A stretch of 64,000 nucleotides of DNA from an uncultured Candidatus Saccharibacteria bacterium (lineage in GTDB: Bacteria; Patescibacteriota; Saccharimonadia; Saccharimonadales; CAYUUR01), in contig CAYUUR010000004.1 of NCBI GenBank assembly GCA_964448075.1, forward strand, positions 4,419 to 68,418, read 5' to 3'. Of the stretch, positions 6,465-64,000 are shown in pieces. The notes beneath the pieces were generated by a model. That model was not told where the DNA came from, searched no databases, and worked only from the letters and a program-made list of their open reading frames with translations. The position numbers and the translations under genes were made by a program. The stretch's first letter is position 1; every line of letters starts with the position of its first letter.

Positions 6465-7064
6465 ATGGTAATGGTGAAAAAGAGAATTAAGTATAGTTAC
6501 GATAAGGGGTTGAAGCGGAATAAATTGATTTCCATAGCTTCGCTTGTGGTCGCATCGGTGTTATTTGCCACGGGTCTCTACTTACTGCTATTAACATTCG
6601 CTCCAGTACTTAACATCCCTGGGCTTAATGCGCCGACTTCCACAGCAGTAAGCAATGACGTTAATCGTGTGGTGATTGAGAAGATCGATGTAGACGTACC
6701 ATTTCATACAGGTGGACCAGAGGCGCTTGAGAAGGGCGCCTGGCACCGTTTTCCTGAACGTGGCGACCCTGAAAATGGCGGTAACTTCGTACTCAGCGCA
6801 CACCGCTTTCAGCTCGGTATCACACCCCAACAGACACGCGCCAAGTCGCCATTTTATAAGCTTGACCAATTAGAAACAGGCGACAAGATAGTAATAACAT
6901 TCAACAAGAAAACATATAACTATGAAGTGACAGATAAATACGATGTAGAACGAACTGCAGTGGAAATCGAAGCGCCGTCAGATGCGCACAAATTAACGCT
7001 ATATAGCTGCTCTCTCAAAGGCGAGAAAGACGGGCGTATCGTGATAGAAGCTAAGCAACTGTAG
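6465..7064 (+). CDS. sortase (class E-like, inferred from LAxTG substrates)
   Basis: 199 aa from ATG 6465. N-terminal TM anchor, then VLSAHR (catalytic His region), LTLYSCS (TLxTC-type Cys) and GRIVIEA (Arg region). Lies immediately downstream of an LAETG protein. Confidence 0.85.
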   Translation: MVMVKKRIKYSYDKGLKRNKLISIASLVVASVLFATGLYLLLLTFAPVLNIPGLNAPTSTAVSNDVNRVVIEKIDVDVPFHTGGPEALEKGAWHRFPERGDPENGGNFVLSAHRFQLGITPQQTRAKSPFYKLDQLETGDKIVITFNKKTYNYEVTDKYDVERTAVEIEAPSDAHKLTLYSCSLKGEKDGRIVIEAKQL

Positions 7065-8029: not shown

Positions 8030-8140
8030 ATGCATAAGCTTAACCAATCCGGCTTAATTCCCTTACTTGTCACCATTTTAATTATGGTGGTCGCGGTTAT
8101 CGTACTTGTTTTTATGCGCGTCAATCAGGCACAACGCTAG
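8030..8140 (+). CDS. possible 36-aa single-TM small protein
   Basis: ATG 8030 to TAG 8138-8140 encodes MHKLNQSGLIPLLVTILIMVVAVIVLVFMRVNQAQR. Below the ORF-track size cutoff, with no clear SD. Only the hydrophobic-helix pattern supports it. Confidence 0.25.
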   Translation: MHKLNQSGLIPLLVTILIMVVAVIVLVFMRVNQAQR

Positions 8141-8159
8141 ACGATGTTATAGTAGCTAC

Positions 8160-9161
8160 ATGATTAACGCACTCACTATCAAAGACAATACCCTGAGCCA
8201 AACCAAAGAAATGCTCAGGCACGAAATATTAGGGCGTGGTTGGGAGCTCTGGTTCTATGATGTGTCGTATCCACAGATGCGCGTGCGACGTTCCGATGGC
8301 AAGATACTGGAGCTCTACGGATCAACCCCGCCGACTACAAGCTATGCCGCAGGATTAACTGCAGACAATAAGCTCATTTCTTCTATCTTGCATGCAGAAG
8401 CTGGCCTACCTGTTCCAGAAACCTATGCGCTCAGTAGTGCTGATAGCGGCAAAAATATTGCCAATCAACTTTTAGATACACAAAAGAAAATTGTCGTGAA
8501 ACCTTTGGATGCTGCACACGGTAATGGCGTGAGCGTGGGGATTGAAACGATTGAGGCATTTGAGCAGGCGGTTGCGGTTGCGCGTGAATTCAGTAGCACC
8601 GTCATTGTACAAGAGCACCTAACACAAAGTTATGATATAAGACTCCTCTGCATTGACTATGCGTGTGTGGCTGGGCTTTTGCGCTTGCCAGCATCGGTAG
8701 TCGGCGATGGCAAGCAAACGGTCAGCCAGTTAATTGCTCATGAAAACACCGATGAACGCAGAGGTGTTAATTATGCCAAAGAACTCAACATTATAAACAT
8801 TGATCATGCTAAACGCTTCTTAGGCAAACAGATACATGATATTCCGCCAGCAGGTAAGCACGTGCAAGTGGTCGGGACTGCAAATGTTGGTACGGGGGGT
8901 TCAACAAAGGATATATCGCGCATCACTCCAGCCTGGCTGACGGCTATGGCTGAACAAGCAGCAAGAGCTTCGCGTCTGCCGTGCTGTGGTGTTGATTTTC
9001 TACTCAGCAGTGAGCCAAGCTTGCAAGCGACAGAGTCCGAGTTGCAACCCAAGCTCCTAGAAATCAACAAGTCGCCCTCGCTTTTTATTCACGAAACACC
9101 AACAGAAGGCGACTCAATGCCGGTTATCAAACAATACGTTGATTATCTAGCTAGTCTGTAG
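8160..9161 (+). CDS. ATP-grasp ligase resembling the N-terminal ATP-grasp module of cyanophycin synthetase
   Basis: 333 aa from ATG 8160. Collinear with my recollection of CphA: VVKPLDAAHGNGVSVGI, IVQEHL..YDIRLL, VVGDGKQTVSQLI, GTANVGTGGSTKDIS, CGVDFLL, LLEINKSPS. No Mur-ligase module. Confidence 0.75.
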   Translation: MINALTIKDNTLSQTKEMLRHEILGRGWELWFYDVSYPQMRVRRSDGKILELYGSTPPTTSYAAGLTADNKLISSILHAEAGLPVPETYALSSADSGKNIANQLLDTQKKIVVKPLDAAHGNGVSVGIETIEAFEQAVAVAREFSSTVIVQEHLTQSYDIRLLCIDYACVAGLLRLPASVVGDGKQTVSQLIAHENTDERRGVNYAKELNIINIDHAKRFLGKQIHDIPPAGKHVQVVGTANVGTGGSTKDISRITPAWLTAMAEQAARASRLPCCGVDFLLSSEPSLQATESELQPKLLEINKSPSLFIHETPTEGDSMPVIKQYVDYLASL

Positions 9162-10389
9162 AAGTTGTTACATAGACAGCAGTGTTCAGATAATCTACAT
9201 CACGTGTAAACTGCGCAAGGTCAGGATTATGCAGCATGACGACAGCAGTCATTTTGTAACCGTCAGATGATTTACCAATTTTGTCACCTGGCCTATATTT
9301 GAGCTTGTAGTCGATTAATGAGGGCAGCTTCTGTAGTTCTGCCTCGTGTGCGATTCCAGTAAATATACCTGGTGTTTTAGGAAACAGCTCGAACACGCCA
9401 AATGGATCATTTCTCTTTGGGGCGATCAGTGGTGTTTTTCCGAGAGATAAACGCAGCGCGTTACCCGTGATATCGATACCATTTGCTATGTCATGCATAC
9501 GACTGCGGTACCCCCCGTTGCGCGCGCCAATCTCTACTATTCGTGGTCCGTCGGTTGTGAGAATAATTTCGATATGTGCTGCGGTGCTTTTCATGCCGAG
9601 TGCCCGACAGCCCAGAGCGGCAGTTTCACGAATTTCTTGGATCTTGCTTGCGGGCAGGGCAGATGGCAGTAGTCGACTATAGTGAAAGTTATCATCGTAG
9701 CCGATATCGTGTCCGGTTTGATAGTCAACGACCTCTTGTAATACAAAAGGTTGGCCAGTGCTATCTACAAACGCATCGACCGAATGGATGCTTCCTTCCA
9801 TAAATTCCTCGATGATAAACTGAGGTTTCTGATGCGGTGCATAGCGCTTATAAATTGCTGATTGTTTAGCCTGAATACGAGCAAATGATTCGAGCATCTC
9901 AGACTCGTTTGATACCTTGCTCACGAGGAGACTCTTTGCGAGGTTTGTGGGTTTGATGATCAATGGAAAAGCATGATTACGTGCGAAGTCCGTGAGGTCT
10001 TGCGCCGTGTTAACAATTGCAAAGTCTGGACTGATCTTAGCCGGCGCTTGTGCAAATAACTGGCGCATGACGAATTTGTCTGTGCAGGCTTGTGCCGCGG
10101 CAACAGGGCAACCGGCCAGGTCATATCTCTCTGCAAGTTTAGCGGCGATCACGATATATTGCTCGTAGAGCGCATAGACAGCATCAAAGGCGTGCACTTT
10201 ATGTAACTCATCAGCAGCAGCTATAATACTGGATTCATTAGAGAAGTCGCAGAGTACGCGACGCTTTATATGTTTATCTGGGTTAGCAACAGCGTGGTTG
10301 TCGCGCAGCAACACGTATTCGTTACCGTGGTCGAGGATGTATTTGTTGAGGCCACTGAAGCTCTGGCCAACGATTAAAATAGTGCTCAT
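9151..10389 (-). CDS. ATP-grasp carboxylate-amine / L-amino-acid-ligase-type enzyme
   Basis: 412 aa from ATG 10389 (listed ORF uses TTG 10398). Pre-ATP-grasp N-domain, PLIIKPTN, IIEEFMEGS, AHIEIILTTDGPRIVEIGARNGG. Its 3' end overlaps the convergent gene by 11 bp. Confidence 0.7.
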   Translation of the reverse strand: MSTILIVGQSFSGLNKYILDHGNEYVLLRDNHAVANPDKHIKRRVLCDFSNESSIIAAADELHKVHAFDAVYALYEQYIVIAAKLAERYDLAGCPVAAAQACTDKFVMRQLFAQAPAKISPDFAIVNTAQDLTDFARNHAFPLIIKPTNLAKSLLVSKVSNESEMLESFARIQAKQSAIYKRYAPHQKPQFIIEEFMEGSIHSVDAFVDSTGQPFVLQEVVDYQTGHDIGYDDNFHYSRLLPSALPASKIQEIRETAALGCRALGMKSTAAHIEIILTTDGPRIVEIGARNGGYRSRMHDIANGIDITGNALRLSLGKTPLIAPKRNDPFGVFELFPKTPGIFTGIAHEAELQKLPSLIDYKLKYRPGDKIGKSSDGYKMTAVVMLHNPDLAQFTRDVDYLNTAVYVTTSTD

Positions 10390-10391
10390 GC

Positions 10392-10420
10392 TTGACAAAA
10401 TTACCTTTTCATAATAAAAT
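10392..10420 (+). promoter_or_regulatory. candidate sigma70-type promoter TTGACA-17-TAAAAT
   Basis: Consensus TTGACA at 10392-10397, an exactly 17-nt spacer, TAAAAT at 10415-10420, 68 nt upstream of the rimB-like ATG. AAAATTACC is repeated at 10397 and 10416. Confidence 0.45.
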
Positions 10421-10487
10421 TACCATAAATTCATACAGAATTCAAGGTATTAGATACGCGTTTTGATACTATATAAGTGGTTCGTAT

Positions 10488-10985
10488 ATGAAAAAAGATT
10501 ACATTAGAAAAGTCGTTATTGGTCGCGCAGAGCTCTTGCATTTTATGGAGTTCTCGATTGCTGACGTACCCGCAAAGGTAGACACCGGCGCATATCGTTC
10601 ATCAGTCCATGCTGACAATATTGCCTTGAATGATGACGGTACAGAACTAACCTTCCGTCTACTTGGCCAACACCCCTTGTTCAAAACGGTCGCCGAGACG
10701 GTAACTACAAAGAACTTTGAGCGCGTCTGGGTGACAAATTCTTTTGGTCAAAGAGAAGAGCGGTTCGAAGTAAAGCTCAAAGTAAAGATCGGGCCAAAGG
10801 TGTTCTGGGGCAAGTTTACCTTGGCTAACCGGGCAAAGATGCTATATCCGATTCTGCTTGGACGTACGTTGCTCAATAAGCGATTTCTTGTTGACCCGTC
10901 GCTACAAGGTGTTAACAGGCTCGAATTAAAGAAGCAGTATGGTATCGTATTGCCAATAGACGAAGAAGAGGAATACAAAACATGA
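10488..10985 (+). CDS. RimK-associated retropepsin-like protease (RimB / ATP-dependent zinc protease family)
   Basis: 165 aa with AKVDTGAYRSSVHA and PILLGRTLL motifs typical of the family found next to rimK. Its stop overlaps the rimK start (ATGA). Confidence 0.75.
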   Translation: MKKDYIRKVVIGRAELLHFMEFSIADVPAKVDTGAYRSSVHADNIALNDDGTELTFRLLGQHPLFKTVAETVTTKNFERVWVTNSFGQREERFEVKLKVKIGPKVFWGKFTLANRAKMLYPILLGRTLLNKRFLVDPSLQGVNRLELKKQYGIVLPIDEEEEYKT

Positions 10986-11896
10986 ATATAGCAATTCTAT
11001 CCAATGGCCCCGGCAACTATTCAACTAAGCGTCTCAAAGAAGAGGCTTTGCTTCGTGGTCACACGGTACGCATTGTTAAGTATCGTGATTGTTATGCTGC
11101 AATCGAGCGTAGTAACCCGGCGGTAAGCTACCGAGGTGAAGATCTGCGCGGTATTGATGCTGTCATCCCGAGGATTGCTAGCAGCATGACTCGTTACGGT
11201 GCAGCTATTGTGCGTCAGTTCGAGATGCAGGGTGTGTACACGACCTCCACCTCCATTGCAATTGTACGTTCTCGCGACAAGCTGCGTAGCTTGCAGCTGC
11301 TTACTAGAACCGGTGTGGGCATCCCAAAGACTGTCTTCTCGCGGAACACTGCCGATATTGACGATTTGCTAGAGCAAGTCGGTGGCACTCCTGTTGTGAT
11401 AAAGCTGGCCCGTGGAACACACGGCAATGGCGTAGTACTGGCGGAGACCAAAAAGGCAGCCAAATCAGTACTTCAGGCGTTTTATTTGCACAACGAAGAC
11501 GGCACTAACATTCTGCTGCAGGAATTTATCGAAGAGGCTGGCGGTGAAGATATTCGTGCATTTGTGGTTGGCGGACGGGTTGTTGCCAGTATGAAGCGTC
11601 AAAGCCTTGACGATGACTTCCGTAGTAACCTACACCAAGGTGGTGAAGGTTCGGTTGTGAAGCTGACTGACGAAGAAAAGAAAACAGCCATCAAAGCCGC
11701 TCGTGCGATGGGTCTGCCAATCTGTGGCGTAGACATGATGCGCTCAACACATGGACCCCTTGTGCTTGAAGTGAATTCCAGCCCTGGTTTTGGCATCGAG
11801 AAGGTGACCGGACGTAACGTTGCGGCGCCAATTATTGATTATATCGAGCGAAACGCCACCAGCAAACGGGGCAAGCGTGATCGTATCGGCGCTTAA
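10982..11896 (+). CDS. rimK: RimK-family alpha-L-glutamate ligase (ribosomal protein S6 modification type)
   Basis: 304 aa ATP-grasp: MNIAILS.., VVIKLARGTHGNGVVLAE, ILLQEFIEEAGGEDIRAFVVGGRVV, GVDMMRS..GPLVLEVNSSPG. Confidence 0.9.
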   Translation: MNIAILSNGPGNYSTKRLKEEALLRGHTVRIVKYRDCYAAIERSNPAVSYRGEDLRGIDAVIPRIASSMTRYGAAIVRQFEMQGVYTTSTSIAIVRSRDKLRSLQLLTRTGVGIPKTVFSRNTADIDDLLEQVGGTPVVIKLARGTHGNGVVLAETKKAAKSVLQAFYLHNEDGTNILLQEFIEEAGGEDIRAFVVGGRVVASMKRQSLDDDFRSNLHQGGEGSVVKLTDEEKKTAIKAARAMGLPICGVDMMRSTHGPLVLEVNSSPGFGIEKVTGRNVAAPIIDYIERNATSKRGKRDRIGA

Positions 11897-12320
11897 GGCG
11901 CAATGGCGACTTGTTTTCGTTGTAGTATTTTTTCTGTTCTGCGCGCTGTTTGTGCCATTTCTGTATGAGCCGCGCAAGCTTGAAGTAGGATCGCAACTCT
12001 ATAGCATAGAGTACGCGAGTACGTCTGCGAAGCGCGAGATGGGGTTGTCTAATCGTGATTCCTTGCCAAGTGACACTGCCATGATTTTTGACTTTGGTAA
12101 ACCTGGTAAGTACTGCATATGGATGAAAGACATGCGTTTTCCGATCGATATTCTGTGGGTGGGTGCAGACAGGAAGGTTGCTGAAATACGACAAAACGTA
12201 CCACCAGATTCGTACCCAGAAAGTTTCTGCCCTAACACTGACGTCTCCTATGTGATTGAGCTCAATGCTGGCGAGGTAGCGCAGAGTGGTATCAGCGAAG
12301 GTGAACCTATCAGTTTTTGA
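11877..12320 (+). CDS. DUF192-domain protein with N-terminal membrane anchor
   Basis: GLSNRDSLPSDTAMIFDF..YCIWMKDMRFPIDILWV..VIELNAG matches the DUF192 pattern. There is no in-frame ATG before the domain except the listed 11820 start deep inside rimK, so in-frame GTG 11877, overlapping the rimK end, is the likelier start. Confidence 0.65.
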   Translation: MIVSALKAQWRLVFVVVFFLFCALFVPFLYEPRKLEVGSQLYSIEYASTSAKREMGLSNRDSLPSDTAMIFDFGKPGKYCIWMKDMRFPIDILWVGADRKVAEIRQNVPPDSYPESFCPNTDVSYVIELNAGEVAQSGISEGEPISF

Positions 12321-13332: not shown

Positions 13333-13409
13333 GGGTCCATAGCTCAGCTGGTTAGAGCACCTGCCTTTTAAGCAGGGTGTCGTGGGTTCGAGTCCCACTG
13401 GACCCTCCA
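13333..13409 (+). tRNA. tRNA-Lys (anticodon TTT), CCA encoded
   Basis: Hand-folded cloverleaf: acceptor GGGTCCA/TGGACCC, D arm GCTC..GAGC, anticodon stem CCTGC/GCAGG with loop CTTTTAA (TTT at 13367-13369), T arm GTGGG-TTCGAGT-CCCAC, discriminator T, CCA. Confidence 0.95.
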
Positions 13410-13447
13410 ATAAAAACGCCTCATCGAAGATGGGGTATTTTTATTGG
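13407..13447 (+). terminator. hairpin whose outer stem starts with the tRNA CCA (CCAATAAAAA...TTTTTATTGG)
   Basis: Outer 10-bp A/T stem plus inner CCTCATC-GAA-GATGGGG stem containing a U-G pair (forms only in the plus-strand RNA). T-rich 3' arm. Confidence 0.6.
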
Positions 13448-13546
13448 TTGATCTCGTAGAGATTGAACGCACGAAGTGGGTGCGTTCATAAGGAGTGCGC
13501 GCAGGAATTTATTCCGAGCACATGACGCAATGGTTCGCAGAACATA
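13411..13546 (+). other. 136-nt module between direct repeats of the tRNA-Lys 3' end
   Basis: Bounded by exact 17-nt repeats (13394-13410 and 13547-13563). Contains hairpins at 13465-13487 and 13504-13515. Collinear blocks are shared with the 137-nt module at tRNA-His. Confidence 0.5.
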
Positions 13547-13563
13547 CCCACTGGACCCTCCAA
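13547..13563 (+). repeat. exact 17-nt copy of the tRNA-Lys 3' end (CCCACTGGACCCTCCAA)
   Basis: Identical to 13394-13410 (3' T-stem, acceptor 3' strand, discriminator, CCA, plus A). Confidence 0.9.
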
Positions 13564-13600
13564 ACAAAATGACTCACCATAGGTGGGTCTTTTTGTTTGG
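13560..13600 (+). terminator. second CCA-anchored hairpin (CCAAACAAAA...TTTTGTTTGG)
   Basis: Same design as 13407-13447. Inner stem GACTCACC-ATA-GGTGGGTC has one U-G pair, followed by a T-rich arm. Confidence 0.55.
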
Positions 13601-45442: not shown

Positions 45443-45598
45443 CTAACTGTATTATCCCATACCCCTCGGTGTTACGCCAGAGTAGCATGTACAACATGTC
45501 GCTGATGGCGGGAAACAGAAACATCTGGCGCGATGCACGCTTTTCGGGTATAATCTCCCTCTGTTAGTGTAATTCCCAACAAGTGAAAAGTTCATCAT

Positions 45599-45675
45599 CG
45601 GGGTGTGGCGCAGTTGGCTAGCGCGCGCGGTTTGGGACCGCGAGGTCGAAGGTTCGAGTCCTTTCACCCCGACCA
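45599..45675 (+). tRNA. tRNA-Pro (anticodon TGG), CCA encoded
   Basis: Acceptor CGGGGTG/CACCCCG, D arm GCGC..GCGC, anticodon stem CGCGG/CCGCG with loop TTTGGGA (TGG at 45633-45635), T arm GAAGG-TTCGAGT-CCTTT, discriminator A, CCA. TATAAT at 45549-45554 upstream. Confidence 0.95.
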
Positions 45676-45712
45676 ATCAAAGAGTCCACAGCAATGTGGG
45701 CTTTTTGATTGG
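45673..45712 (+). terminator. CCA-anchored hairpin (CCAATCAAAG...CTTTTTGATTGG)
   Basis: The outer stem uses the tRNA CCA. Inner stem GTCCACA-GCAA-TGTGGGC has one U-G pair. T-rich 3' arm. Confidence 0.6.
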
Positions 45713-45842
45713 TTCTTTGCATTGTAGAAAAGTGATAGTTGATTTTTGAACAGTCTGTGAACTTTACAGGCAGTAATGTTTACGTTTACTGAAAAAAGTT
45801 ATACAATCTTGTTCAACATAAAGCTGACAGGAGGGTTAAAGT

Positions 45843-55823: not shown

Positions 55824-55836
55824 ACCAGACCGTCTC

Positions 55837-55845
55837 TGTTATAAT
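55837..55845 (+). promoter_or_regulatory. extended -10 element TGtTATAAT upstream of tRNA-Gly
   Basis: TGTTATAAT at 55837-55845, 21 nt before the tRNA 5' end. Confidence 0.45.
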
Positions 55846-55866
55846 AGCGTGGTCCATCGACACTGT

Positions 55867-55941
55867 GCGGGTGTTGTATAGTGGCTAATATGCTAGCCTT
55901 CCAAGCTGGAGACGAGAGTTCGATTCTCTCCACCCGCACCA
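55867..55941 (+). tRNA. tRNA-Gly (anticodon TCC), CCA encoded
   Basis: Acceptor GCGGGTG/CACCCGC, anticodon stem CTAGC/GCTGG with loop CTTCCAA (TCC at 55900-55902), T arm GAGAG-TTCGATT-CTCTC, discriminator A, CCA. Confidence 0.93.
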
Positions 55942-55984
55942 ATCCTTTGTTCTCCTTGCGCGAGAGTAAAGGATTGGTTTTTTA
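55939..55984. terminator. CCA-anchored hairpin shared with the convergent gene (CCAATCCTTT...AAAGGATTGG + T tract)
   Basis: A 10-bp outer stem, an inner short stem, then TTTTTT. The stop of the minus-strand gene (55982-55984) lies in the T tract, so the hairpin may act in both directions. Confidence 0.55.
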
Positions 55985-57313: not shown

Positions 57314-57363
57314 ACTAATTGGTTTCCGTTTATGCTTAGTAGTATAGGAATATAACCTCTGTT

Positions 57364-57393
57364 TTGCAAGAATAGCACCAGTGAAGGTATAAT
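57364..57393 (+). promoter_or_regulatory. candidate promoter TTGCAA-18-TATAAT for tRNA-Arg
   Basis: TTGCAA at 57364-57369, TATAAT at 57388-57393, 20 nt before the tRNA 5' end. Confidence 0.5.
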
Positions 57394-57413
57394 ATGCCAG
57401 TTAGTCAAGGTAC

Positions 57414-57490
57414 GCCCCGGTAGCTCAGCTGGATAGAGCAAGTGGGTTCTAACCATTAGGTCGGGGGTTCGAATCCCTCCCGGGGTACCA
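57414..57490 (+). tRNA. tRNA-Arg (anticodon TCT), CCA encoded
   Basis: Acceptor GCCCCGG/CCGGGGT (G1-U72), D arm GCTC..GAGC, anticodon stem AGTGG/CCATT with loop GTTCTAA (TCT at 57448-57450), T arm GGGGG-TTCGAAT-CCCTC, discriminator A, CCA. Confidence 0.93.
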
Positions 57491-57528
57491 AGCAAAACGT
57501 CCATGCCCTGCATGGGCTTTTTGTTTGG
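57488..57528 (+). terminator. CCA-anchored hairpin (CCAAGCAAAA...TTTTTGTTTGG)
   Basis: Inner stem GTCCATGC-CCT-GCATGGGC has one U-G pair. T-rich 3' arm. Confidence 0.6.
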
Positions 57529-57720
57529 TCCTACCATGATTCAAACACTCGACGCCAAGGGTCGGGGTGAAAACTGCCCGGTGGCAGTTTGCAAGAGAAT
57601 CTTCACCTGACAACTTGTTGTCATGGCAGAAGTTCTGGGCCTGCTGAAAGTAGGTCGAATCCCTGTCCGCCCTGTCTGGCAGACAGGCGGGCCTCCCTGG
57701 GTAGCATGTCGCTAATGCCT
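57529..57720 (+). ncRNA. candidate structured RNA containing a scrambled copy of the tRNA-Arg T-arm/acceptor 3' part
   Basis: No ORF on either strand is credible. Hairpins: AAACTGCC-CGGT-GGCAGTTT (57571-57590), TGACAA-CTTG-TTGTCA (57609-57624), and an 11-bp bulged stem (57665-57691). TAGGTCG+AATCCCT (57651-57664) and CCTCCCTGGGTAGCA (57692-57706) copy tRNA-Arg. Bounded by terminators on both sides. Confidence 0.3.
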
Positions 57721-57752
57721 AAAAAGACTTCAATAAGAAGTCTTTTTATTTT
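57721..57752 (+). terminator. rho-independent terminator
   Basis: AAAAAGACTTC-AATAA-GAAGTCTTTTT followed by ATTTT, 15 nt before the next ATG. Confidence 0.65.
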
Positions 57753-57766
57753 GCTATAGTTATGCC

Positions 57767-58690
57767 ATGAAGATTGATGCCGAAAAACAGTTTCAGCCAA
57801 CTCAGCAGTCTGTTGCATACATACTGGCCTCCTATGACTTGTCACTAATTAGCTTTGAGCCTGCACAAACTGGCATTGAAAACTGCACGTTGTTCGTGAC
57901 GACAAACAAAGGCGACTTTGTTCTCCGGGTGTATCGGCAGTCTAAAAAGACGAGTGACGAGATTGCACTTGAACTGGATTTTATCCGCTATCTTGATGAG
58001 AACGGTATACCAGTAGCAGCAGCAATTGCCAGTGTAAAAGGAGAGTATGTCATAGCTCACCAAGGTTGGCAGTCAATACTGATGCGCAAAGTAGCGGGTA
58101 AACACGCGCATTCATACGATGGTGAACTTGTTAGGAATCTTTCTGTTCTGCAGGCAAAGATGCACATGCTTTCACAAGAATATAAGAGCACTTTTCCTAT
58201 TTTACAGCCCTTAAGCATCCTAGAAGACACAATATTTATCCCAAAAGTCGATACATCCAAAATTAACAGTGAAGCACACCTACTCTTGAAGCGCGCACTA
58301 GATTATACAGTGTCACTTCCAGTCGGGTTGCCAACCGGTCTGTGTCACCTTGATTATGATGCAGACAATGTTCTGTTTGATGAGGCACAGCAGATAGCCG
58401 CCGTGCTTGATTTTGATGACCTCGCGCTTGCTCCGTTTGTTGTGTGTCTCAGCTACACGTTATGGGACGTTATGTCTCAAGAAGACACGCAGTTAGTCAA
58501 AGACTACATCACTTCATATGCTACAGTCCGAAACCTGACCAATCAGGAGCTAGAATTAATCCCAAAGATCATGCTTTTTAGACACTACATGATTGCCGGA
58601 CTTGTTATGCTTGATGGCGATATGGATGCTGAGACTACTGCAAAGTACATTCGTGTTGAACAGGTAATCATGAGCTGGCAATTAAGCTAA
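57767..58690 (+). CDS. phosphotransferase-family kinase (APH / homoserine kinase II / choline kinase-like)
   Basis: 307 aa with Brenner motif LCHLDYDADNVLF and LDFDDLA. Substrate unknown. Confidence 0.75.
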   Translation: MKIDAEKQFQPTQQSVAYILASYDLSLISFEPAQTGIENCTLFVTTNKGDFVLRVYRQSKKTSDEIALELDFIRYLDENGIPVAAAIASVKGEYVIAHQGWQSILMRKVAGKHAHSYDGELVRNLSVLQAKMHMLSQEYKSTFPILQPLSILEDTIFIPKVDTSKINSEAHLLLKRALDYTVSLPVGLPTGLCHLDYDADNVLFDEAQQIAAVLDFDDLALAPFVVCLSYTLWDVMSQEDTQLVKDYITSYATVRNLTNQELELIPKIMLFRHYMIAGLVMLDGDMDAETTAKYIRVEQVIMSWQLS

Positions 58691-58770
58691 TAGCTATGTC
58701 CTCTGCGATAATATTGGATTGTATAGCTCGTACGCTTGCCTTGAGGGCGCATTTGCTGAATACTTGAATC

Positions 58771-59277
58771 ATGCAGCGGCCAGCACAATTTCGAGACCCA
58801 CAATTAGACACTTCCGGTAATATAATTGGGTTCTATCCGCGTGAGTTTTATGTCTTTGATAACTTCTCGTCCTTCCAGGTTGACTATAGGGGACGACGCT
58901 GGCCAACATCAGAACATGCCTATCAGGCGTCGCACTTCTTTGAGACCGCTCCAGAACTGGTAGAAGCAATCTTTGAGGCGCGTTCGGCCCACGACGCGTA
59001 TAAGATCGCAAAAGCCAATGGGGACAAGGCGCCAAAAAATTGGGAAGAGGTAAAGGTCGGCGTCATGTATGAGATCTGTAAGCTCAAGCTAACTCAAAAC
59101 CCATACGTACTAGAAAAGTTATCATTGAGTGGCGATCTTAATATCATCGAGGATTCTCCAAAAGATGACTTCTGGGGATGGGGGCCAAACCGTGATGGCC
59201 GTAATGAGCTTGGCAAAATCTGGATGAAGCTACGCGATGAGCTTCGCTCTGGTAAAATTACATCACAAAAATCGTAA
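58771..59277 (+). CDS. NADAR (YbiA/DUF1768) family protein
   Basis: 168 aa with FDNFSSFQVDYRGRRWPTSEHAYQASHF and the DFWGWG.. pattern. Confidence 0.8.
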   Translation: MQRPAQFRDPQLDTSGNIIGFYPREFYVFDNFSSFQVDYRGRRWPTSEHAYQASHFFETAPELVEAIFEARSAHDAYKIAKANGDKAPKNWEEVKVGVMYEICKLKLTQNPYVLEKLSLSGDLNIIEDSPKDDFWGWGPNRDGRNELGKIWMKLRDELRSGKITSQKS

Positions 59278-59373
59278 ATTATACACAATTCTTTATCTCT
59301 GTATTACCCTTTACTTAACAGATATACATAAGTAGTATAAGTACATGGCTTTTGGAGGGGCAGTTTTTTTATA

Positions 59374-62300
59374 ATGACGGATGCAGTTAAGGTTAATAAG
59401 AGACGGCTATGGCAGGTCCTATTCACCGTTTTCTCTATAGCTTTGCTTGCCGTGATACTCAGGCCAATTATGACCGAGGCTGCAGCATATACCTGGGATG
59501 GCGGTGGCGCCGACAATAACTGGAGTACCTGTGCTAACTGGACTACAGATTTTTGTCCTGGTGCCAGCGATACGGCAACCTTTAATGGCACATCAACGAA
59601 AGATGTTACTATCGATGGCGGATTTGGTGGAACAGTAACCTCGATAACTATTGCGTCTGGTTACACGGGGACTATAACAATGGCGCGCTCACTAACCGTA
59701 AGTACGTCATTCTCTCAGGCCACCGGCACATTTACGGCAGCAAACCAATCGTTCGATATGAATGGCACTTTCACACTTTCTGGTGGGATCTTCACAGCAT
59801 CGAGCGGTAGCACAACTCTGGCTGGAGCGATGACCGTTTCCGGCAGTCCTACTTTTAATGCAAATAGCGGTACCTGGACGTTTGATGGCACAACGACAGC
59901 AACCTTATCTTGCAATAACATAACGTTTAACCTGGTCACGTTCAATCACGATACAAACGCCGGTAAAACAGTTAGTTCGAACTGTACTTTGCCGCTTGGC
60001 AATAACCCTTCAACCGGAGCATCAACTACTCAGGATTTGACGATCAATGGGACGTTGACAGGGACTGGCACATTAACAATAGGTGCGAAAAACAGCGCCA
60101 ACCTTTTGACTCTCAACAGCGGCGGTTCTCTATCTGGGTTTACCGGGCTGGATGCGGGGTCGGTAACCATAGCGGGTACTTATGATTTCAGTACTTACAC
60201 TACGCTCTTTGCAGTAAGTTCGCCGTATAGTCAAACTTCCGGAACGGTTACACTGCCAAATGGTGCGGACTTCAATAATACGTTCACGGTTAGTAGTGGC
60301 GCTACGCTCAACGCCTCATCGGGCATCACGAACTTTGCAGGTAATTTCACTTTGGACGCGGGGTCGATATTTAATCACAATAATGGCACCCTTGACTTTG
60401 ACGGGGCGAATGCGGGGCTCTTGACGTGCAATGGAGCGAGTATCTATAACGCCACCTTTACGCATACGTCCAACTTCACCAAAACCATCGGCACCACTTG
60501 TACGGTTCCCCTAGGCAACAACCCTACCATAGGCAGTGACGGTACGGCCGATGTTACGGTGAACGGTACGTTGTCTGGTACTGGTACTCTTTCTCATGGG
60601 ACAAAAGCATCTGGTAATCTACTGACTCTTAGCTCCACTGGAGCTTTATCAGGCTTTAGTGGTCTTGGGCCTGGCTCGCTAACTGTCACTGGAGGAACTT
60701 ATGACTTTGGGGCTTACAGCGCTTTAGTGTTCCCCGGGGCTTACAGTCAAACAGCCGGCACGGTTACGATACCTAGCGGCTCTGATTTTAATAGTACATT
60801 CAGTGTGAGTAGCGGAGCTACATTTAACGCTCCGTCTGGTACGGCAACTTTTGCCAGTACGTTTACACTAGCAGCCGGCTCTATTTTTAACGCAAACTCT
60901 GGAACAATTACTTTTGATGGCGCGGTCACGGCTACTATTACCTGCAATAGCGCCGTCTTTAACCTAGTGACTTTTGCTCACAGCAGTAACTTTACCAAGA
61001 CTGTCAGTTCCGGTTGCACATTGCCTTTGGGCAATAATCCAACAGTAGGAAGTGGAAGTTTCCCAGATATTATTGTAGGAGGTACTCTGTCAGGAACTGG
61101 GACATTGACCATTGGCGGAAAGGCAGCACAGAATACACTTATCATAAATAGTGGTGGTTCACTATCAGGTTTTAGCGCACTAGATGCCGGAACTGTTAGT
61201 TTGGCAGCAGGAACCCATAACTTCGGCAGTCTTACTACTTTCGCGACTAGGGCTGATTTCTCGCTCGTGAGCGGAGTTATTTTTACGGCACCAAGTGGAA
61301 CCTTGTCATTGTATGAAGACTTTACTGTAAATGCTGGCGCAACATTCAACGCGAACGGAGGCACAGTTGTTTTCACGGATCCCGGCTATAACTCAGCAAT
61401 AATTAACTGTAACAACGTCACTTTTAATTTGGTGGTATTTGACAACTCACAACCGAGAACTTTCAACAATTGCGCTATGCAAATAGCAGACTCGACAGTT
61501 GACGTAAGTTCTACGCAGATTGTCTTAGGTACGAACTCTTCTATTACTGGGGGTGGCAATACGTATCTTCACGGTATGAGATTAACCATAAACCAAGGCT
61601 CTTCAATTTCGGGCTTTTCTGAGTTACTGATTGCTGAAATAGAACTTAAAGATAATGCTAGTTTGGATATTTCCGCTATGGACTATGTATACATAACAAA
61701 TAACTTAACCATGAGGACTGGTAGTAGTCTAACTCAAGGGACCGCTGAGTTAGAGATCGGTAGCATCGGGATGTCAGACGGTGGCGCATCGCTCATTGGC
61801 GGCAGTGGCCCGATGCTATTTCACAACGATGTAGACATTGTAGGCTCCGCAGATGTATTAACGCTTACGTCTGGCATGGCAAAATTTGAAGGTAATTTGG
61901 AGCTTGGAGGTGCCACTTCGATCGATGCTAACGGTGGTGTGGTTGAGTTTACGGATGACGGCTTTGGTGGTGCGTACACGGTTGCTTGTAACGGCGCAGT
62001 ATTTAATGAAGTGACATTCACAAGGGATATTGGGACGCTGACCATTGCAGACACATGCGAATTTCTACTCGGTAATAATCCGTCTATTACGGTTGGGCCT
62101 GATTTTCGATTATATGGCCAGCTAACTGGCACTGGCACACTGACGGTTATCGGATCGCTTAGCCCAAGAGGTAGCAGTGTCGATCTCTCTGGGTTTACTG
62201 GTCTACAGACTGATGATTTGTTCATAGGGGTTGCTGGAACGGCTACCAGCCTGAACTTAGGAGCGTTTAACACGGTTGATGTAGATGGTGATTTTTCGGT

Positions 62301-63057
62301 GGCAGCTGATGGTGTGTTCACGGCGACATCAGCAAACATGACCGTTGCCGGAGATTTTAGCGTCGATGACGCCGGCACATTCAATCATAATAACGGAACT
62401 GTTATTCTTGATGGTAGTGATCAGACAATCAACGGCACTACTTTTTATAACCTGAACAAGACTGTCGCAACCGCCGCAACACTCACAATGTCAGCCGGTA
62501 GGACTGTGACAATCCAAGGAACGCTCACGCTTAAAGATGCTTCTGGCCAATTACTCAGTATCGTTTCTTCTGATCCCGGGGTTACTCAGTGGGGGATAAA
62601 TGCAAGTGGTGACACGGAGATTAGGTATGTATCTGTAACTGACAGCAATAATGTCGGATCAGCGATTACGGCATTAGACAGTGAAAATGGCGGCAACAAC
62701 ATCAATTGGTTGTTCGTAGATACGTCTATTGATAGCGATCCCGAAGAAGAGGCTACGCAAACTGATGATAGTACCATCAAAGCAATTACCGATGATGAGG
62801 TAGTCACATATTATGAAGAGAGTACAGATAGTACCAATGACGACGATAAGAGTGATAATGAGACAGACGACTATCGTGACGATGGTTTGTCTGATTTCGG
62901 CGCAGCAACGACTGATCAGATCAAGTCACCAGTTACTACAAGTGAAAACAAACTGCCCGCAATAGTTGTGCGCATCGCGCTTGGCGGACTAGTAGCGCTC
63001 ATCGTTTTTGTTCTAGTGAGGTTGTTTGTTCGTCCAGGTGCCCCGCCATTGGAATAG
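59374..63057 (+). CDS. giant repetitive surface protein with C-terminal membrane anchor
   Basis: 1227 aa. N-terminal signal/anchor (WQVLFTVFSIALLAVIL), YTWDGGGADNNWST start, six modules of ~150-190 aa (each FN[AH]N.GT..F[DT]..., C.N..F..V.F, NCTLPLGNNP, G.L.GTGTL), an Asp/Glu/Thr-rich linker, and a terminal TM helix. No LAxTG. Confidence 0.85.
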   Translation: MTDAVKVNKRRLWQVLFTVFSIALLAVILRPIMTEAAAYTWDGGGADNNWSTCANWTTDFCPGASDTATFNGTSTKDVTIDGGFGGTVTSITIASGYTGTITMARSLTVSTSFSQATGTFTAANQSFDMNGTFTLSGGIFTASSGSTTLAGAMTVSGSPTFNANSGTWTFDGTTTATLSCNNITFNLVTFNHDTNAGKTVSSNCTLPLGNNPSTGASTTQDLTINGTLTGTGTLTIGAKNSANLLTLNSGGSLSGFTGLDAGSVTIAGTYDFSTYTTLFAVSSPYSQTSGTVTLPNGADFNNTFTVSSGATLNASSGITNFAGNFTLDAGSIFNHNNGTLDFDGANAGLLTCNGASIYNATFTHTSNFTKTIGTTCTVPLGNNPTIGSDGTADVTVNGTLSGTGTLSHGTKASGNLLTLSSTGALSGFSGLGPGSLTVTGGTYDFGAYSALVFPGAYSQTAGTVTIPSGSDFNSTFSVSSGATFNAPSGTATFASTFTLAAGSIFNANSGTITFDGAVTATITCNSAVFNLVTFAHSSNFTKTVSSGCTLPLGNNPTVGSGSFPDIIVGGTLSGTGTLTIGGKAAQNTLIINSGGSLSGFSALDAGTVSLAAGTHNFGSLTTFATRADFSLVSGVIFTAPSGTLSLYEDFTVNAGATFNANGGTVVFTDPGYNSAIINCNNVTFNLVVFDNSQPRTFNNCAMQIADSTVDVSSTQIVLGTNSSITGGGNTYLHGMRLTINQGSSISGFSELLIAEIELKDNASLDISAMDYVYITNNLTMRTGSSLTQGTAELEIGSIGMSDGGASLIGGSGPMLFHNDVDIVGSADVLTLTSGMAKFEGNLELGGATSIDANGGVVEFTDDGFGGAYTVACNGAVFNEVTFTRDIGTLTIADTCEFLLGNNPSITVGPDFRLYGQLTGTGTLTVIGSLSPRGSSVDLSGFTGLQTDDLFIGVAGTATSLNLGAFNTVDVDGDFSVAADGVFTATSANMTVAGDFSVDDAGTFNHNNGTVILDGSDQTINGTTFYNLNKTVATAATLTMSAGRTVTIQGTLTLKDASGQLLSIVSSDPGVTQWGINASGDTEIRYVSVTDSNNVGSAITALDSENGGNNINWLFVDTSIDSDPEEEATQTDDSTIKAITDDEVVTYYEESTDSTNDDDKSDNETDDYRDDGLSDFGAATTDQIKSPVTTSENKLPAIVVRIALGGLVALIVFVLVRLFVRPGAPPLE

Positions 63058-63112
63058 CGTTAAATTAGTGATCATTCTTTTGAAGGGGGCTATTTTTTGC
63101 TATGCTTGCTAC

Positions 63113-63652
63113 ATGGTCTACGTCTTTGTCGGTATTGTGTTTACAGTATTTCTTCTGAAGATATATCTTCTCATGAAACATCCCAAGGGTCCTGGCCGGG
63201 CAAACCAAGATGCACATAATTTACAGGCTTTGTCGTCACCCTTGGCAGGTACCTACACGTGTGGTTATAGCAACATCGGGTTTTGCACGCTAATAGTCGA
63301 CACCAACGGTGTGAAGTGTGAACAGGCTGGACAGACCATATTCCAGCTAGCAATTACTGATATTGTCGAGGTAAATACCTCATATTGGGCAATCCAGTTT
63401 GTAACATCTACAGAAAAGTACTCAATTACAAGTTTGCATAAGCCTGAAGCAAATCAGCTCGTCGGCGCAGTAAGTAGAAGCGCAATAGCAACCGAGCCAA
63501 GCACGCTAAAGGAATTTGAGCATATCTTAAGTGCTCATAATGTGAGTTTTAAACGAAAAATCACATTGCAAAAACACATGGTTATTGGCCTAGTTGGCGG
63601 TGTTCTCTCATTGCTTTTTCTCGCATACTTGGTCTTTATGGCGCTTCAGTAA
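63113..63652 (+). CDS. hypothetical protein with N- and C-terminal TM helices
   Basis: 179 aa from ATG 63113 (the listed TTG 63026 overlaps the upstream gene). No motif recognised. Confidence 0.45.
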   Translation: MVYVFVGIVFTVFLLKIYLLMKHPKGPGRANQDAHNLQALSSPLAGTYTCGYSNIGFCTLIVDTNGVKCEQAGQTIFQLAITDIVEVNTSYWAIQFVTSTEKYSITSLHKPEANQLVGAVSRSAIATEPSTLKEFEHILSAHNVSFKRKITLQKHMVIGLVGGVLSLLFLAYLVFMALQ

Positions 63653-63668
63653 TAATAGGTTCGTTGTA

Positions 63669-63697
63669 TTGTAAATAAATCATTCCTGGTATATAAT
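63669..63697 (+). promoter_or_regulatory. candidate promoter TTGTAA-17-TATAAT for tRNA-His
   Basis: TTGTAA at 63669-63674, TATAAT at 63692-63697, 16 nt before the tRNA G-1. Confidence 0.5.
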
Positions 63698-63713
63698 CAC
63701 CTCTGTTATTTAT

Positions 63714-63791
63714 GGCGGGCTTAGCTCAGTTGGTTAGAGCGTCGGGTTGTGGTTCCGAAGGTCGTGGGTTCGATCCCCATAGCTCGCCCCA
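63714..63791 (+). tRNA. tRNA-His (anticodon GTG) with encoded G-1 and CCA
   Basis: G-1 at 63714 opposite discriminator C. Acceptor GCGGGCT/AGCTCGC, anticodon stem TCGGG/TCCGA with loop TTGTGGT (GTG at 63749-63751), T arm GTGGG-TTCGATC-CCCAT, CCA. Confidence 0.93.
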
Positions 63792-63829
63792 TGAAAAGAC
63801 CAGTCCTTCCGGGCTGGTTTTTTCATGGG
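63788..63829 (+). terminator. CCA-anchored hairpin (CCCATGAAAA...TTTTCATGGG)
   Basis: A 10-bp outer stem, plus inner ACCAGTCC-TTCC-GGGCTGGT with one U-G pair, followed by a T tract. Confidence 0.6.
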
Positions 63830-63928
63830 CATGTTTATGTGAGCGAACCTGAGAACGCGAAGCGTGGGTTCGACAAACAAAGGCACGCGCAGAAGCTCGC
63901 TTCGAGCATGTCTGCAGTTTGTATCCAT
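63792..63928 (+). other. 137-nt module between direct repeats of the tRNA-His 3' end
   Basis: Bounded by exact 19-nt repeats (63773-63791 and 63929-63947). Contains a further 11-nt T-arm copy CGTGGGTTCGA (63863-63873) and a GAAG-CTCG-CTTC hairpin (63892-63903). Collinear with the tRNA-Lys module. Confidence 0.5.
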
Positions 63929-63947
63929 ATCCCCATAGCTCGCCCCA
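63929..63947 (+). repeat. exact 19-nt copy of the tRNA-His 3' end (ATCCCCATAGCTCGCCCCA)
   Basis: Identical to 63773-63791 (from T-loop A58 through CCA). Confidence 0.9.
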
Positions 63948-63986
63948 AATAAAAATGATCCCAGTTGGGGTCATTTTTATTTGGGG
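63943..63986 (+). terminator. second CCA-anchored hairpin (CCCCAAATAAAAA...TTTTTATTTGGGG)
   Basis: Same design as 63788-63829. Inner stem TGATCCCA-GT-TGGGGTCA has one U-G pair. Confidence 0.55.
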
Positions 63987-64000
63987 CTAACCTGTGTTCG

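Follow-up and report, generated by a model that had tools for sequence, protein, structure and literature searches.

Integration into tRNA genes was reportedly classified by sublocation by Williams in 2002. In archaea, non-canonical T-arm introns are said to transpose between tRNA genes, an account attributed to Fujishima (2010); bacteria, to our knowledge, do not possess a splicing endonuclease. MITEs and cis-mobilisable elements are small, non-coding, and non-autonomous, with the latter flanked by att sites. Folded single-strand recombination sites include the attC of integrons and the attP of the CTX phage. Genomes of the Saccharibacteria and their relatives are below 1 Mb in size, their tRNA genes are single-copy, and few mobile elements have been recognised in them. 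The report on mycobacteriophage Ms6 places its attB in the T loop of a tRNA-Ala gene (PMC1762012). In an archaeon, a 1.8-kb recombinase element has left behind a fragment of tRNA-Thr (PMC3293823).

A non-coding insert of approximately 155 nt (segment 63792-63947) lies directly 3' of the tRNA-His gene in the window, the whole 64-kb stretch of DNA that was analysed. This and all other features described here are on the + strand. The tRNA-His(GTG) gene is at 63715-63791, with its CCA encoded and G-1 encoded at 63714. Its sigma-70-like promoter (TTGTAA, 17 nt, TATAAT; 63669-63697) was the only promoter-like site identified by a promoter scan within 63600-64000; none was found inside 63792-63947, and a strong terminator stands ahead of the module. 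The order at this locus is the intact tRNA, a terminator hairpin, a short left arm, a piece like the 5' half of a T arm, a structured cassette, an exact copy of the tRNA from T loop to CCA, and a second terminator hairpin. The final 19 nt of the tRNA (A58 to A76, ATCCCCATAGCTCGCCCCA, 63773-63791) recur exactly at 63929-63947, with 137 nt separating the copies, and an exact 19-nt repeat inside 160 nt is far beyond chance. Both copies are followed by their own long hairpin beginning in the encoded CCA: a terminator at 63788-63829 and a terminator-like hairpin at 63942-63987 with 22-nt arms that are 95% complementary.

The left part of the module, X (63830-63862), includes CGAACC at 63844-63849, an inverted copy of GGTTCG, and GCGAAG stands before the T-arm copy. 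The latter is 11 nt long (CGTGGGTTCGA, 63863-63873), is identical to 63763-63773, and comprises the 5' half of the T arm with the first part of the T loop. The cassette that follows, referred to as type A, is a long hairpin of approximately 55 nt (63874-63928). It consists of P2 (CAAAC, 63874-78, with GTTTG, 63917-21), P3 (AGGCA, 63881-85, with TGTCT, 63909-13), a conserved internal loop with CGCGCA (63886-91) opposite GAGCA (63904-08), the apical hairpin GAAG-CTCG-CTTC (63892-63903), and the tail TATCCAT (63922-28). The module has no coding potential; overlapping ORFs are short and run through tRNA-His, and there is no credible ORF between the repeats. An acceptor 5' strand, a D arm, and an anticodon arm, all of which a tRNA containing an intron would possess, are not recognisable in the interrupted tRNA copy, and ARAGORN and Rfam detect no tRNA there, only the intact one upstream.

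The sister module at tRNA-Lys(TTT) (13394-13600; tRNA gene 13333-13409) is also of type A. Its repeat, CCCACTGGACCCTCCA, is present as 16-nt copies at 13394-13409 and 13547-13562, each with a terminator hairpin (13407-13447 and 13560-13600). Because the two terminators are 76% alike across a 55-nt repeat, duplication of the 3' end together with its terminator is possible at this tRNA. Between them are a small hairpin (13451-13463), GAAGTGGGT (13473-13481), and the type A core, with CGCGCA at 13498-13503, the hairpin GGAA-TTTA-TTCC at 13504-13515, and GAGCA at 13516-13520. An earlier, sequence-only reading of this DNA had described the exact 19-nt repeat 137 nt apart at tRNA-His, the internal copy of the T-arm 5' half, and the placement of both hairpins between CGCGCA and GAGCA, all of which were found as described. 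Its description of the His module as a T loop split after A58 is anatomically accurate. The 136 nt that it gave for the Lys module holds if the repeat is taken to include the A that follows both copies; the 16-nt copies themselves are 137 nt apart.

Taken as a pair, the interiors of the Lys and His modules are only marginally similar. Global alignment gave z = 2.45, with 26 of 2000 shuffles equally good, falling to z = 1.6 once the T-arm-like piece was left out. Local alignment was not significant (z 0.7) and BLAST found no link between the two. Homology is therefore argued not from the pair but from further family members. Five of these were identified in other Saccharibacteria, sharing the core and the block order, to give a total of seven type A members from six genomes or contigs. 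Two are behind tRNA-Lys (L002 and L003), one is behind tRNA-Glu (L048), one is behind a decayed tRNA-Glu-like remnant (L042), and one is behind tRNA-Arg (L058), which brings the number of tRNA species followed by type A to four (Lys, His, Glu, and Arg). All seven carry the internal loop CGCRCA / GAGCA around the hairpin. Without mismatches, CGCRCAG-N11-GAGCA occurs in the 64-kb window only at the Lys and His sites; allowing one mismatch adds two matches, both inside coding DNA. A metagenome scan returned 22 matches, of which 20 are chance occurrences in high-GC coding DNA and two, L042 and L048, are real.

The GAAG..GTGGGT piece accompanies type A even behind tRNA-Glu, which has GCGGG as its own T stem. 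This T-arm-like piece thus appears to be intrinsic to type A. Since the piece behind tRNA-Glu is not Glu-like, simple tandem duplication of the tRNA followed by cassette insertion was rejected for this type. The exact second copies of the tRNA end are 16, 19, 18, 21, 17, and 12 nt in the window and its relatives. They start at T-loop positions 57-61, except for the 12-nt copy in L055, which is acceptor strand and CCA only. The second copy is degenerate in L002, L042, L048, and the Arg module of the window.

The apical hairpin of type A is paired in all seven members and three of its four pairs covary, with changes on both sides. For the whole proposed structure, 86.6% of cells pair, compared to 21-54% in controls slid by 1-3 columns, and seven pairs have changed on both sides, compared to 0-3 in these controls. 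None of 500 shuffles reached the observed values for pairing and double-sided change. This argues against chance similarity and indicates a structure that is being maintained rather than decaying. The modules had been proposed to be sisters with a hairpin kept through compensatory change, and both proposals are borne out by the additional members, although the pairwise alignment is marginal: the shared blocks exceed the T-arm sequence common to the tRNAs, and none of the members has lost the hairpin.

Because G.U outnumbers A.C by 11:1 when the structure is read on the tRNA-sense strand, the predicted fold is assigned to that strand. The structure may act as either RNA or DNA. The MFE z-scores of the modules are modest (-2.4 to +0.4). 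For GUGGG to pair with the local T-stem 3' strand, whether of Lys, His, or Glu, G.U pairs must be allowed. The idea that a tRNA-like minihelix or cloverleaf forms in general was rejected because the acceptor 3' strand has no conserved 5' partner; in the His module GUGAGC or GCGAAGC could pair with GCUCGC, and there is nothing comparable in Lys, L003, or L058. The CGCRCA / GAGCA loop was also compared by eye with a kink-turn and with SRP domain IV. Both were rejected, as the bases needed for the sheared pairs are Watson-Crick paired in the hairpin, the loop is not GNRA, and the Rfam SRP model gives no match.

A second structured cassette, type B, is unrelated to type A and is found in the same kind of frame. 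In the window it is at tRNA-Arg(TCT) (module 57488-57752; tRNA gene 57414-57490). After the terminator hairpin there are three covarying hairpins around TTGCAAGAGAATCTTCACCTG (57589-57609), an extra hairpin (approximately 57667-57691), a degenerate copy of the tRNA-Arg end (CCTCCCTGGGTAGCA, 57692-57706, 13/15 matches), and a second terminator (approximately 57720-57752). Among three type B sequences there are eight compensatory pairs, and one G.U pair is retained in all three. The flanking T-arm copies look local, and tandem duplication followed by insertion is possible for this type. Modules are present at three of the five tRNAs of the window, and all of its type A and type B cores, two A and one B in 64 kb, are linked to tRNAs. 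A third kind of insert is seen in relatives, on the 5' side of tRNA-Lys.

One tRNA-Lys site is filled in some relatives and empty in others, as is expected of an integrating element. At the RimK-linked tRNA-Lys locus, type A is present in the window and L002, type B is present in L020 and L055, and there is no 3' module in L023, L027, L051, L052, L054, and L056. The L003 tRNA-Lys has type A, but without the RimK synteny. In L055, the terminator adjoining the tRNA resembles the lone terminator of the module-free L051; given this and the likeness of the two terminators at tRNA-Lys in the window, either terminator may be the one that arrived with a module. The His locus of L058 is syntenic with that of the window, with the same order of NADAR gene, 179-aa protein, and tRNA-His. 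Both of its terminator hairpins, the first 20 nt or so of its left arm, and its repeat are near-identical to those of the window, yet the interior is type B. The tRNA-Arg of L058 carries type A, which is the reverse of the window, where tRNA-Arg carries type B. Both genomes in which two loci were seen (those of the window and L058) therefore bear A and B. On these sequences, frame and cassette are separable, with the cassette replaceable by an unrelated type B in a near-identical frame. The suggestion that the module moved between tRNA genes is supported by the presence of type A at Lys, His, Glu, and Arg and by this exchange of types at syntenic loci. The second cassette family, the separability of frame and cassette, and the shared blocks beyond the T-arm sequence are new relative to the sequence-only reading. 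Beyond the second hairpin in L058 there is a convergent glycosyltransferase gene.

A close parallel is with elements that use a T-loop tyrosine integrase. In both there is one intact, rebuilt tRNA with a displaced 3' end downstream, and a site that is filled or empty depending upon the strain; here the direct repeats of the tRNA 3' segment are 19 nt at His, 16 nt at Lys, and 12-21 nt in relatives. However, only about 140 nt lie between the repeats here, with no integrase or other gene, the same interior is behind four tRNA species, two unrelated cassettes are interchangeable, and a structured cassette stands between the T-arm 5' copy and the T-loop/3' copy. Like MITEs, the modules are small and non-coding, have several dispersed copies per genome (two A and one B in 64 kb) with patchy occupancy, and are presumably moved in trans. 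Unlike MITEs, they have no terminal inverted repeats, their inverted repeats being internal hairpins and terminators, their flanking repeats are 12-21 nt long and made of tRNA sequence, where a MITE has a target duplication of 2-10 bp, and their helices are kept by compensatory change rather than decaying. In the disrupted tRNA genes of archaea, too, short structured inserts that are related to one another occupy a single T-loop position in different tRNAs, and orphan fragments lie beside intact genes, although here the insert is in a truncated copy lacking the tRNA 5' half, not in a working gene. The self-splicing tRNA introns of the same phylum again show tRNA genes being targeted by insertions. 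These are several hundred nt, however, and in the anticodon loop of working tRNAs, Rfam finds no intron here, and the paper on them does not speak of duplications, repeats, pseudogenes, or the T arm. Integron attC and CTX attP share with the modules an imperfect hairpin, conserved unpaired bases, covarying stems, and cassette-like exchange at a fixed docking site, but the core sequences differ and no integron integrase or attI was found here.

It is tentatively suggested, at somewhat short of an even chance, that segment 63792-63947 is one copy of a miniature, non-autonomous, non-coding cassette integrated at the 3' ends of tRNA genes in Saccharibacteria. The module would have entered through conservative recombination in the 12-21 nt with which the tRNA gene ends, from T loop to CCA, the sublocation of T-loop-type tyrosine integrases. 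Of the two recombinant junctions, one would rebuild a complete tRNA and terminator, while the other would leave a displaced tRNA end and its own terminator downstream, generating attL/attR-like repeats. As the module encodes no protein, it would have to be moved either by a trans-acting recombinase or through short-homology recombination once DNA has been taken up. This machinery would recognise the conserved hairpin and loop as folded on the tRNA-sense strand; alternatively, these would be a transcribed RNA. Insertions breaking single-copy tRNA genes would be lethal, and this would explain why only duplication-bearing arrangements are seen.

Several observations count against a mobile cassette. 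There is no integrase, transposase, or reverse transcriptase beside any module in the gene tables of related loci, and the 20 window ORFs scanned with Pfam are housekeeping genes with no recombinase. Neither an autonomous parent element nor a phage or plasmid bearing attP was found by pattern scans of viral contigs or BLAST of phage records. A degenerate type A pattern did match viral contigs 16 times, all in one coding region of related enterobacterial prophages and lacking the hairpin; these were rejected as a chance match multiplied by relatedness. Three tighter type A/B patterns found nothing in the viral contigs, nor did the BLAST of phage records. An empty frame, with the T-arm copy but no cassette, was not met among the loci examined, and the separation of the T-arm copy from the T-loop/3' copy by type A is unlike a canonical attR. 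We know of no site-specific integrase that is not specific for one tRNA, and because one scaffold is at four tRNA species, extra assumptions are needed.

The covarying helices, the invariant loop, and the 11:1 excess of G.U would fit a functional RNA at least as well, and the main rival to the mobile cassette, though rather unlikely in itself, is a small structured RNA on a tRNA-like scaffold that is useful to the host or at least transcribed. Read-through past the first terminator would yield a T-stem mimic (GUGGG paired with CCCAC, CCCAU, or CCCGC) whose loop contains the cassette hairpin; after it would come the acceptor 3' strand, CCA, and a terminator, and the tRNA-like 3' end would give processing or stability. 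On this view A and B are separate RNA species, and recombination between the conserved T-arm flanks would have shuffled the two among tRNA loci. The helices around an invariant internal loop in A, the three covarying hairpins in B, the G.U pair common to all three type B sequences, the dependence of the T-stem pairing on G.U, and the presence of both types in both two-locus genomes are consistent with this. So are the orientation of every module with its tRNA, each ending in a terminator, and the conservation of the cassette core where the second tRNA end has decayed (L002, L042, and L048). Yet the module lies behind a strong terminator and lacks its own promoter, the z-scores are modest, and the acceptor 3' strand has no partner with which to form a general minihelix or cloverleaf. 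Rfam, at the gathering score and at E up to 10, returned only tRNAs and chance matches on terminators, with no RNA family. Six RimK-linked tRNA-Lys loci are without a 3' module, copy number and location vary, and the two type A copies in the window are rather different, which is not the pattern of an RNA gene that is essential.

Decayed remnants of larger integrated elements, either prophages or genomic islands, in which internal deletion has left attL, a few arm sequences, and attR, are an improbable source of the modules. Repeats from T loop to 3' end are the classic scar of tRNA-integrating elements and some second copies are degenerate (L002, L042, L048, and the window Arg module), but independent deletions would not yield equal sizes and both type A modules in the window have 137 nt between repeats. 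Nor would decay be expected to maintain helices by compensatory change, to put the same 55-nt or so cassette behind four tRNA species, or to swap A and B in a conserved frame, and nothing related was seen in the viral contigs or phage records. More improbable still is that the scaffold and its variable tail of 12-21 nt form a programmable RNA, a guide or a tRNA-end mimic, targeting a trans-acting recombinase or nuclease to tRNA genes, with A and B as alternative scaffolds. If true, ultra-small genomes would harbour a mobile cassette that is protein-less, is directed by RNA, and homes to tRNA genes. As a guide-RNA-like element proper, with the 12-21 nt of tRNA 3' end as the programmable guide, it would resemble the right-end RNA of TnpB or the tRNA-homing crRNA of type V-K CRISPR transposons. 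Such a guide would account for a single scaffold paired with Lys, His, Glu, and Arg tRNA ends, a GAGCA-to-repeat distance of 18-26 nt in all intact type A members, and a fold on the transcribed strand. It is a remote prospect, however, as no TnpB, IscB, Cas12, or IS110-type gene is near any module in the locus gene tables or the Pfam results for the window ORFs, Rfam gives no match of omega-RNA or bridge-RNA type, the guide is degenerate in several copies with an intact scaffold, and the first terminator and T-arm copy are left unexplained. Chance similarity or an assembly artefact is effectively refuted. The similarity of the Lys and His interiors is weak when taken alone, and short-read contigs do break inside tRNAs (L001 runs from tRNA-Arg to tRNA-His and L021 ends at tRNA-Lys). 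Against this, the repeats are exact over 16-21 nt, the covariation statistics speak against chance, and the same architecture is in independent NCBI, JGI, and ENA assemblies, with L001 (Logan) covering the window Arg module.

If the modules are mobile cassettes, they would be an overlooked and very compact class of tRNA-targeting element, in which the tRNA is spared by the duplicated end and frame and cassette recombine. If they are RNAs, they would be a natural case of small RNAs borne on a tRNA-like scaffold. In practice, short-read assemblies break at the tRNA genes that carry modules, the resulting orphan tRNA fragments are liable to be miscalled by annotation pipelines, and the modules can serve as a marker of recent DNA exchange between strains.

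ARAGORN and Rfam place five tRNA genes in the window, each of them lying on the + strand and encoding its own CCA: tRNA-Lys (13333-13409), tRNA-Pro (45599-45675), tRNA-Gly (55867-55941), tRNA-Arg (57414-57490) and tRNA-His (63715-63791). The 3'-terminal 19 nt of tRNA-His, A58 to A76 (ATCCCCATAGCTCGCCCCA, 63773-63791), has an exact second copy at 63929-63947, and the 5' half of the T arm and the start of the T loop are copied exactly as CGTGGGTTCGA at 63863-63873. A long hairpin starting within the CCA follows each copy of the tRNA end (63788-63829 and 63942-63987), the first of which scores as a terminator. The one promoter-like site within 63600-64000 is that of tRNA-His itself, at 63669-63697. 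The tRNA-Lys module has the same layout, with a 16-nt repeat (13394-13409 and 13547-13562) and hairpins at 13407-13447 and 13560-13600; the spacing between repeat copies is 137 nt at both genes. The sequence-only reading thus holds in all its details.

Each of the five tRNA genes has a terminator hairpin (CCA and an A-rich arm, then a T-rich arm and TGG) that begins within the encoded CCA, at 13407-13447, 45673-45716, 55939-55980, 57488-57528 and 63788-63829, so that the tRNA 3' end forms part of the terminator stem. A CTCTGTT(A) motif beside TATAAT is common to tRNA promoters (45555-45575, 55833-55850, 57355-57395 and 63690-63712). The 45 bases 5' of tRNA-His are identical in L058, a contig from a distant relative, though the adjacent protein is 59% identical.

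When the Lys and His interiors were aligned and compared with dinucleotide shuffles, local alignment was not significant, and global alignment gave z = 2.45, which dropped to 1.6 once the T-arm-like piece was left out. BLAST found no link between them. Since this sequence similarity is weak by itself, the question of homology needed further members. A pattern scan of species-representative genomes gave two matches, L002 and L003, both Saccharibacteria MAGs with the element directly 3' of tRNA-Lys(UUU). A metagenome scan gave one contig with it behind tRNA-Glu(CUC) (L048) and one behind a decayed tRNA-Glu-like remnant (L042); the other 20 matches were due to chance. The L058 member, with the core variant CGCACAG, lies behind tRNA-Arg(UCU). 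The sample comprises only seven members of type A and four of type B. Type A occurs behind four tRNA species, and all seven members have the block order GAAG..G(T)GGGT, 16 nt, CGCRCAG, an 11-nt hairpin remainder and GAGCA, with apical hairpins GGAA-TTTA-TTCC, GAAG-CTCG-CTTC, GGTGC-TG-GCACC, GGAA-TATA-TTCC and GGAA-TGTG-TTCC. Within the window, Lys and His are the sole sites of the type A core, and Arg is the sole site of the type B core. In L042 (1430-1650) the remnant ahead of the cassette, ..TTCGACTCCACAAGGGTCACCA, is no longer called by ARAGORN. No recognisable second tRNA-end copy was found behind this cassette, which looks like an old, eroding copy.

The same type A architecture was obtained by RNAalifold on an unsupervised alignment and from single-sequence folds. 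It comprises a T-stem-like outer helix, in which GUGGG pairs with a local CCCAC, CCCAU or CCCGC, a variable helix P2, a 3-5 bp helix P3, an internal loop (CGCRCA / GAGCA) containing two G-C pairs and, distal to it, the apical hairpin. No sequence similarity links the P2 helices of different members (examples are GUUC/GAAC, CAAAC/GUUUG, GGCCG/CGGCC and CGUC/GACG), and because no common alignment columns are possible P2 was left out of the pair counts, which were made on the seven-member alignment for helices with common columns. In these, 86.6% of cells are paired, against 21-54% with the partner slid by 1-3 columns, and double-sided changes occur in seven pairs, compared with 0-3 in the slid controls; none of 500 shuffles was as good. 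The apical hairpin, first proposed to covary from the Lys and His copies, is borne out by the family: it is paired in all seven members, with covariation in three of its four pairs. The minimum free energy z-scores are modest (-2.4 to +0.4). The ratio of G.U to A.C in the helices of types A and B is 11:1, which assigns the fold to the tRNA-sense strand. Rfam searches with types A and B of the window gave no family, even with E values as high as 10 admitted.

The type B cassette is unrelated to type A. Its module in the window (57488-57752), after tRNA-Arg(TCT), has three covarying hairpins, a degenerate tRNA-end copy and a second terminator. The segment 57529-57706 is homologous to the modules after tRNA-Lys in L020, a relative's locus, and tRNA-His in L058; the fold common to these three sequences has three hairpins placed around TTGCAAGAGAATCTTCACCTG, and eight of its pairs are compensatory. 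The local tRNA end is copied after each, over 21 nt exactly in L020, 20 nt in L058 and at 13 of 15 positions in the window (CCTCCCTGGGTAGCA, 57692-57706, ahead of the second terminator). A variant with a 12-nt repeat lies behind tRNA-Lys in a further relative, L055. Immediately 5' of the tRNA-end copy in the Arg module is a small hairpin, CCGCCCTGTC..GACAGGCGGG (~57667-57691), and a near-identical one precedes the tRNA-Lys end copy in L055 (minus strand, ~4700-4730), as if nested within the repeat.

The gene order leading up to tRNA-Lys (RimB-like gene, RimK, DUF192 gene, membrane protein, then the tRNA) ties the window's locus to those of a series of relatives. The ATP-grasp/RimK/RimB-like/DUF192 cluster, at 8106-12320 in the window and 5' of tRNA-Lys, is syntenic across many Saccharibacteria and served to fetch the matching locus from relatives. 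The 3' side of the RimK-linked tRNA-Lys is occupied by type A in the window and in L002 and by type B in L020 and L055, and is empty in L023, L027, L051, L052, L054 and L056. In L003, type A is behind tRNA-Lys but without the RimK synteny. The most telling comparison for turnover is that with L058 (GCA_964510235.1; the JGI contig L059 is identical). Both have the gene order tRNA-Arg, NADAR gene, 179-aa protein and tRNA-His, the protein being only 59% identical. The tRNA-His frame is near-identical (promoter-proximal bases, tRNA, terminator 1, the following ~20 nt, tRNA-end copy and terminator 2), whereas L058 has a type B interior and the window a type A one; at tRNA-Arg the converse is seen. 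Frame and cassette can thus be separated, and one cassette can be exchanged for another. The T loop of tRNA-His in L058 is TTCAATC, not TTCGATC, and its second copy likewise has CAATC; the second copy tracks the local tRNA.

The piece GAAG..GTGGGT is retained by type A behind tRNA-Glu, though the T stem of Glu is GCGGG, and it therefore belongs to the cassette rather than being a copy from the host tRNA. As had been suspected, the tRNA-His variable loop and T arm are similar in sequence to this piece. In type B, by comparison, the T-arm-like pieces that flank the cassette look local in origin (GGTCGGGG at tRNA-Arg, GTCGTGGGT at tRNA-His and, in L020, GGA.GTGGG twice). Either terminator may have arrived with the module: the two tRNA-Lys terminators are 76% alike across a 55-nt repeat, and the tRNA-adjacent terminator of L055 resembles the single terminator of the module-free L051.

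The modules thus have repeats, a family across four tRNA species, a maintained structure, presence/absence polymorphism and A/B exchange in a conserved frame; the mode of insertion is inferred. If recombination took place inside a tRNA gene, between its T loop and CCA, it would yield an intact tRNA and terminator, then the interior, then the displaced tRNA end and terminator, a product that the module layout matches. T-loop-type integrases, for example that of phage Ms6 (PMC1762012), give the same layout of rebuilt tRNA and displaced end, and the tRNA-Thr fragment left behind by an archaeal 1.8-kb recombinase element (PMC3293823) parallels the displaced end. Because of this fit, the module is tentatively taken as a miniature, non-autonomous integrative cassette, which places it with tRNA-targeting integrative elements, a known kind. 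Against this, no recombinase gene was found: Pfam scans of 20 ORFs of the window gave housekeeping genes (DnaJ, sortase, GGDEF, ATP-grasp/RimK, enolase, RuvB, PilM, PilC, RecA, RecX and YmdB), and neither they nor the gene tables of related loci contain an integrase, transposase or reverse transcriptase. No free form or anything else related to the modules was found in viral contigs and phage records. The 16 matches to a degenerate type A pattern in viral contigs (L004-L019) lie in a single coding region of related enterobacterial prophages, and so are one chance match multiplied by relatedness in the viral collection.

A single scaffold at four tRNA species and an RNA-like pattern of selection also count against an integrative cassette. 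The main rival, a small RNA on a scaffold of T arm and acceptor 3' end, produced by read-through, is compatible with that reading and is possible, if less likely. That the modules are decayed remnants of larger elements is improbable, a guide-RNA-like element is very doubtful, and an artefact is scarcely credible. Should the RNA or RNA-guided readings be true, the finding could be categorically new. Literature searches found no published description of these modules; a recent survey of Patescibacteria tRNA introns deals with those of group I that lie in the anticodon loop, and its text does not mention duplications, repeats, pseudogenes or the T arm.

A further module, type C, is found on the 5' side of tRNA-Lys in L052 (~6760-6870), L053 (~6760-6980, two tandem copies) and L054 (~6035-6153). 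Here the tRNA's initial 18 nt, as far as the D loop, precede a module of ~95 nt, after which comes the complete tRNA. The module contains AGAGCACCTG of tRNA-Lys as an inverted copy and a covarying hairpin, GTGAC-ATA-GTCAC in one genome and GTGGC-GTA-GCCAC in another. Short-read (Logan) contigs, L001 (window 57461-63751) and L021, have ends that fall within tRNA-Arg, tRNA-His and tRNA-Lys, which suggests branching of the assembly graph at these genes, perhaps because the modules vary between alleles in the population.
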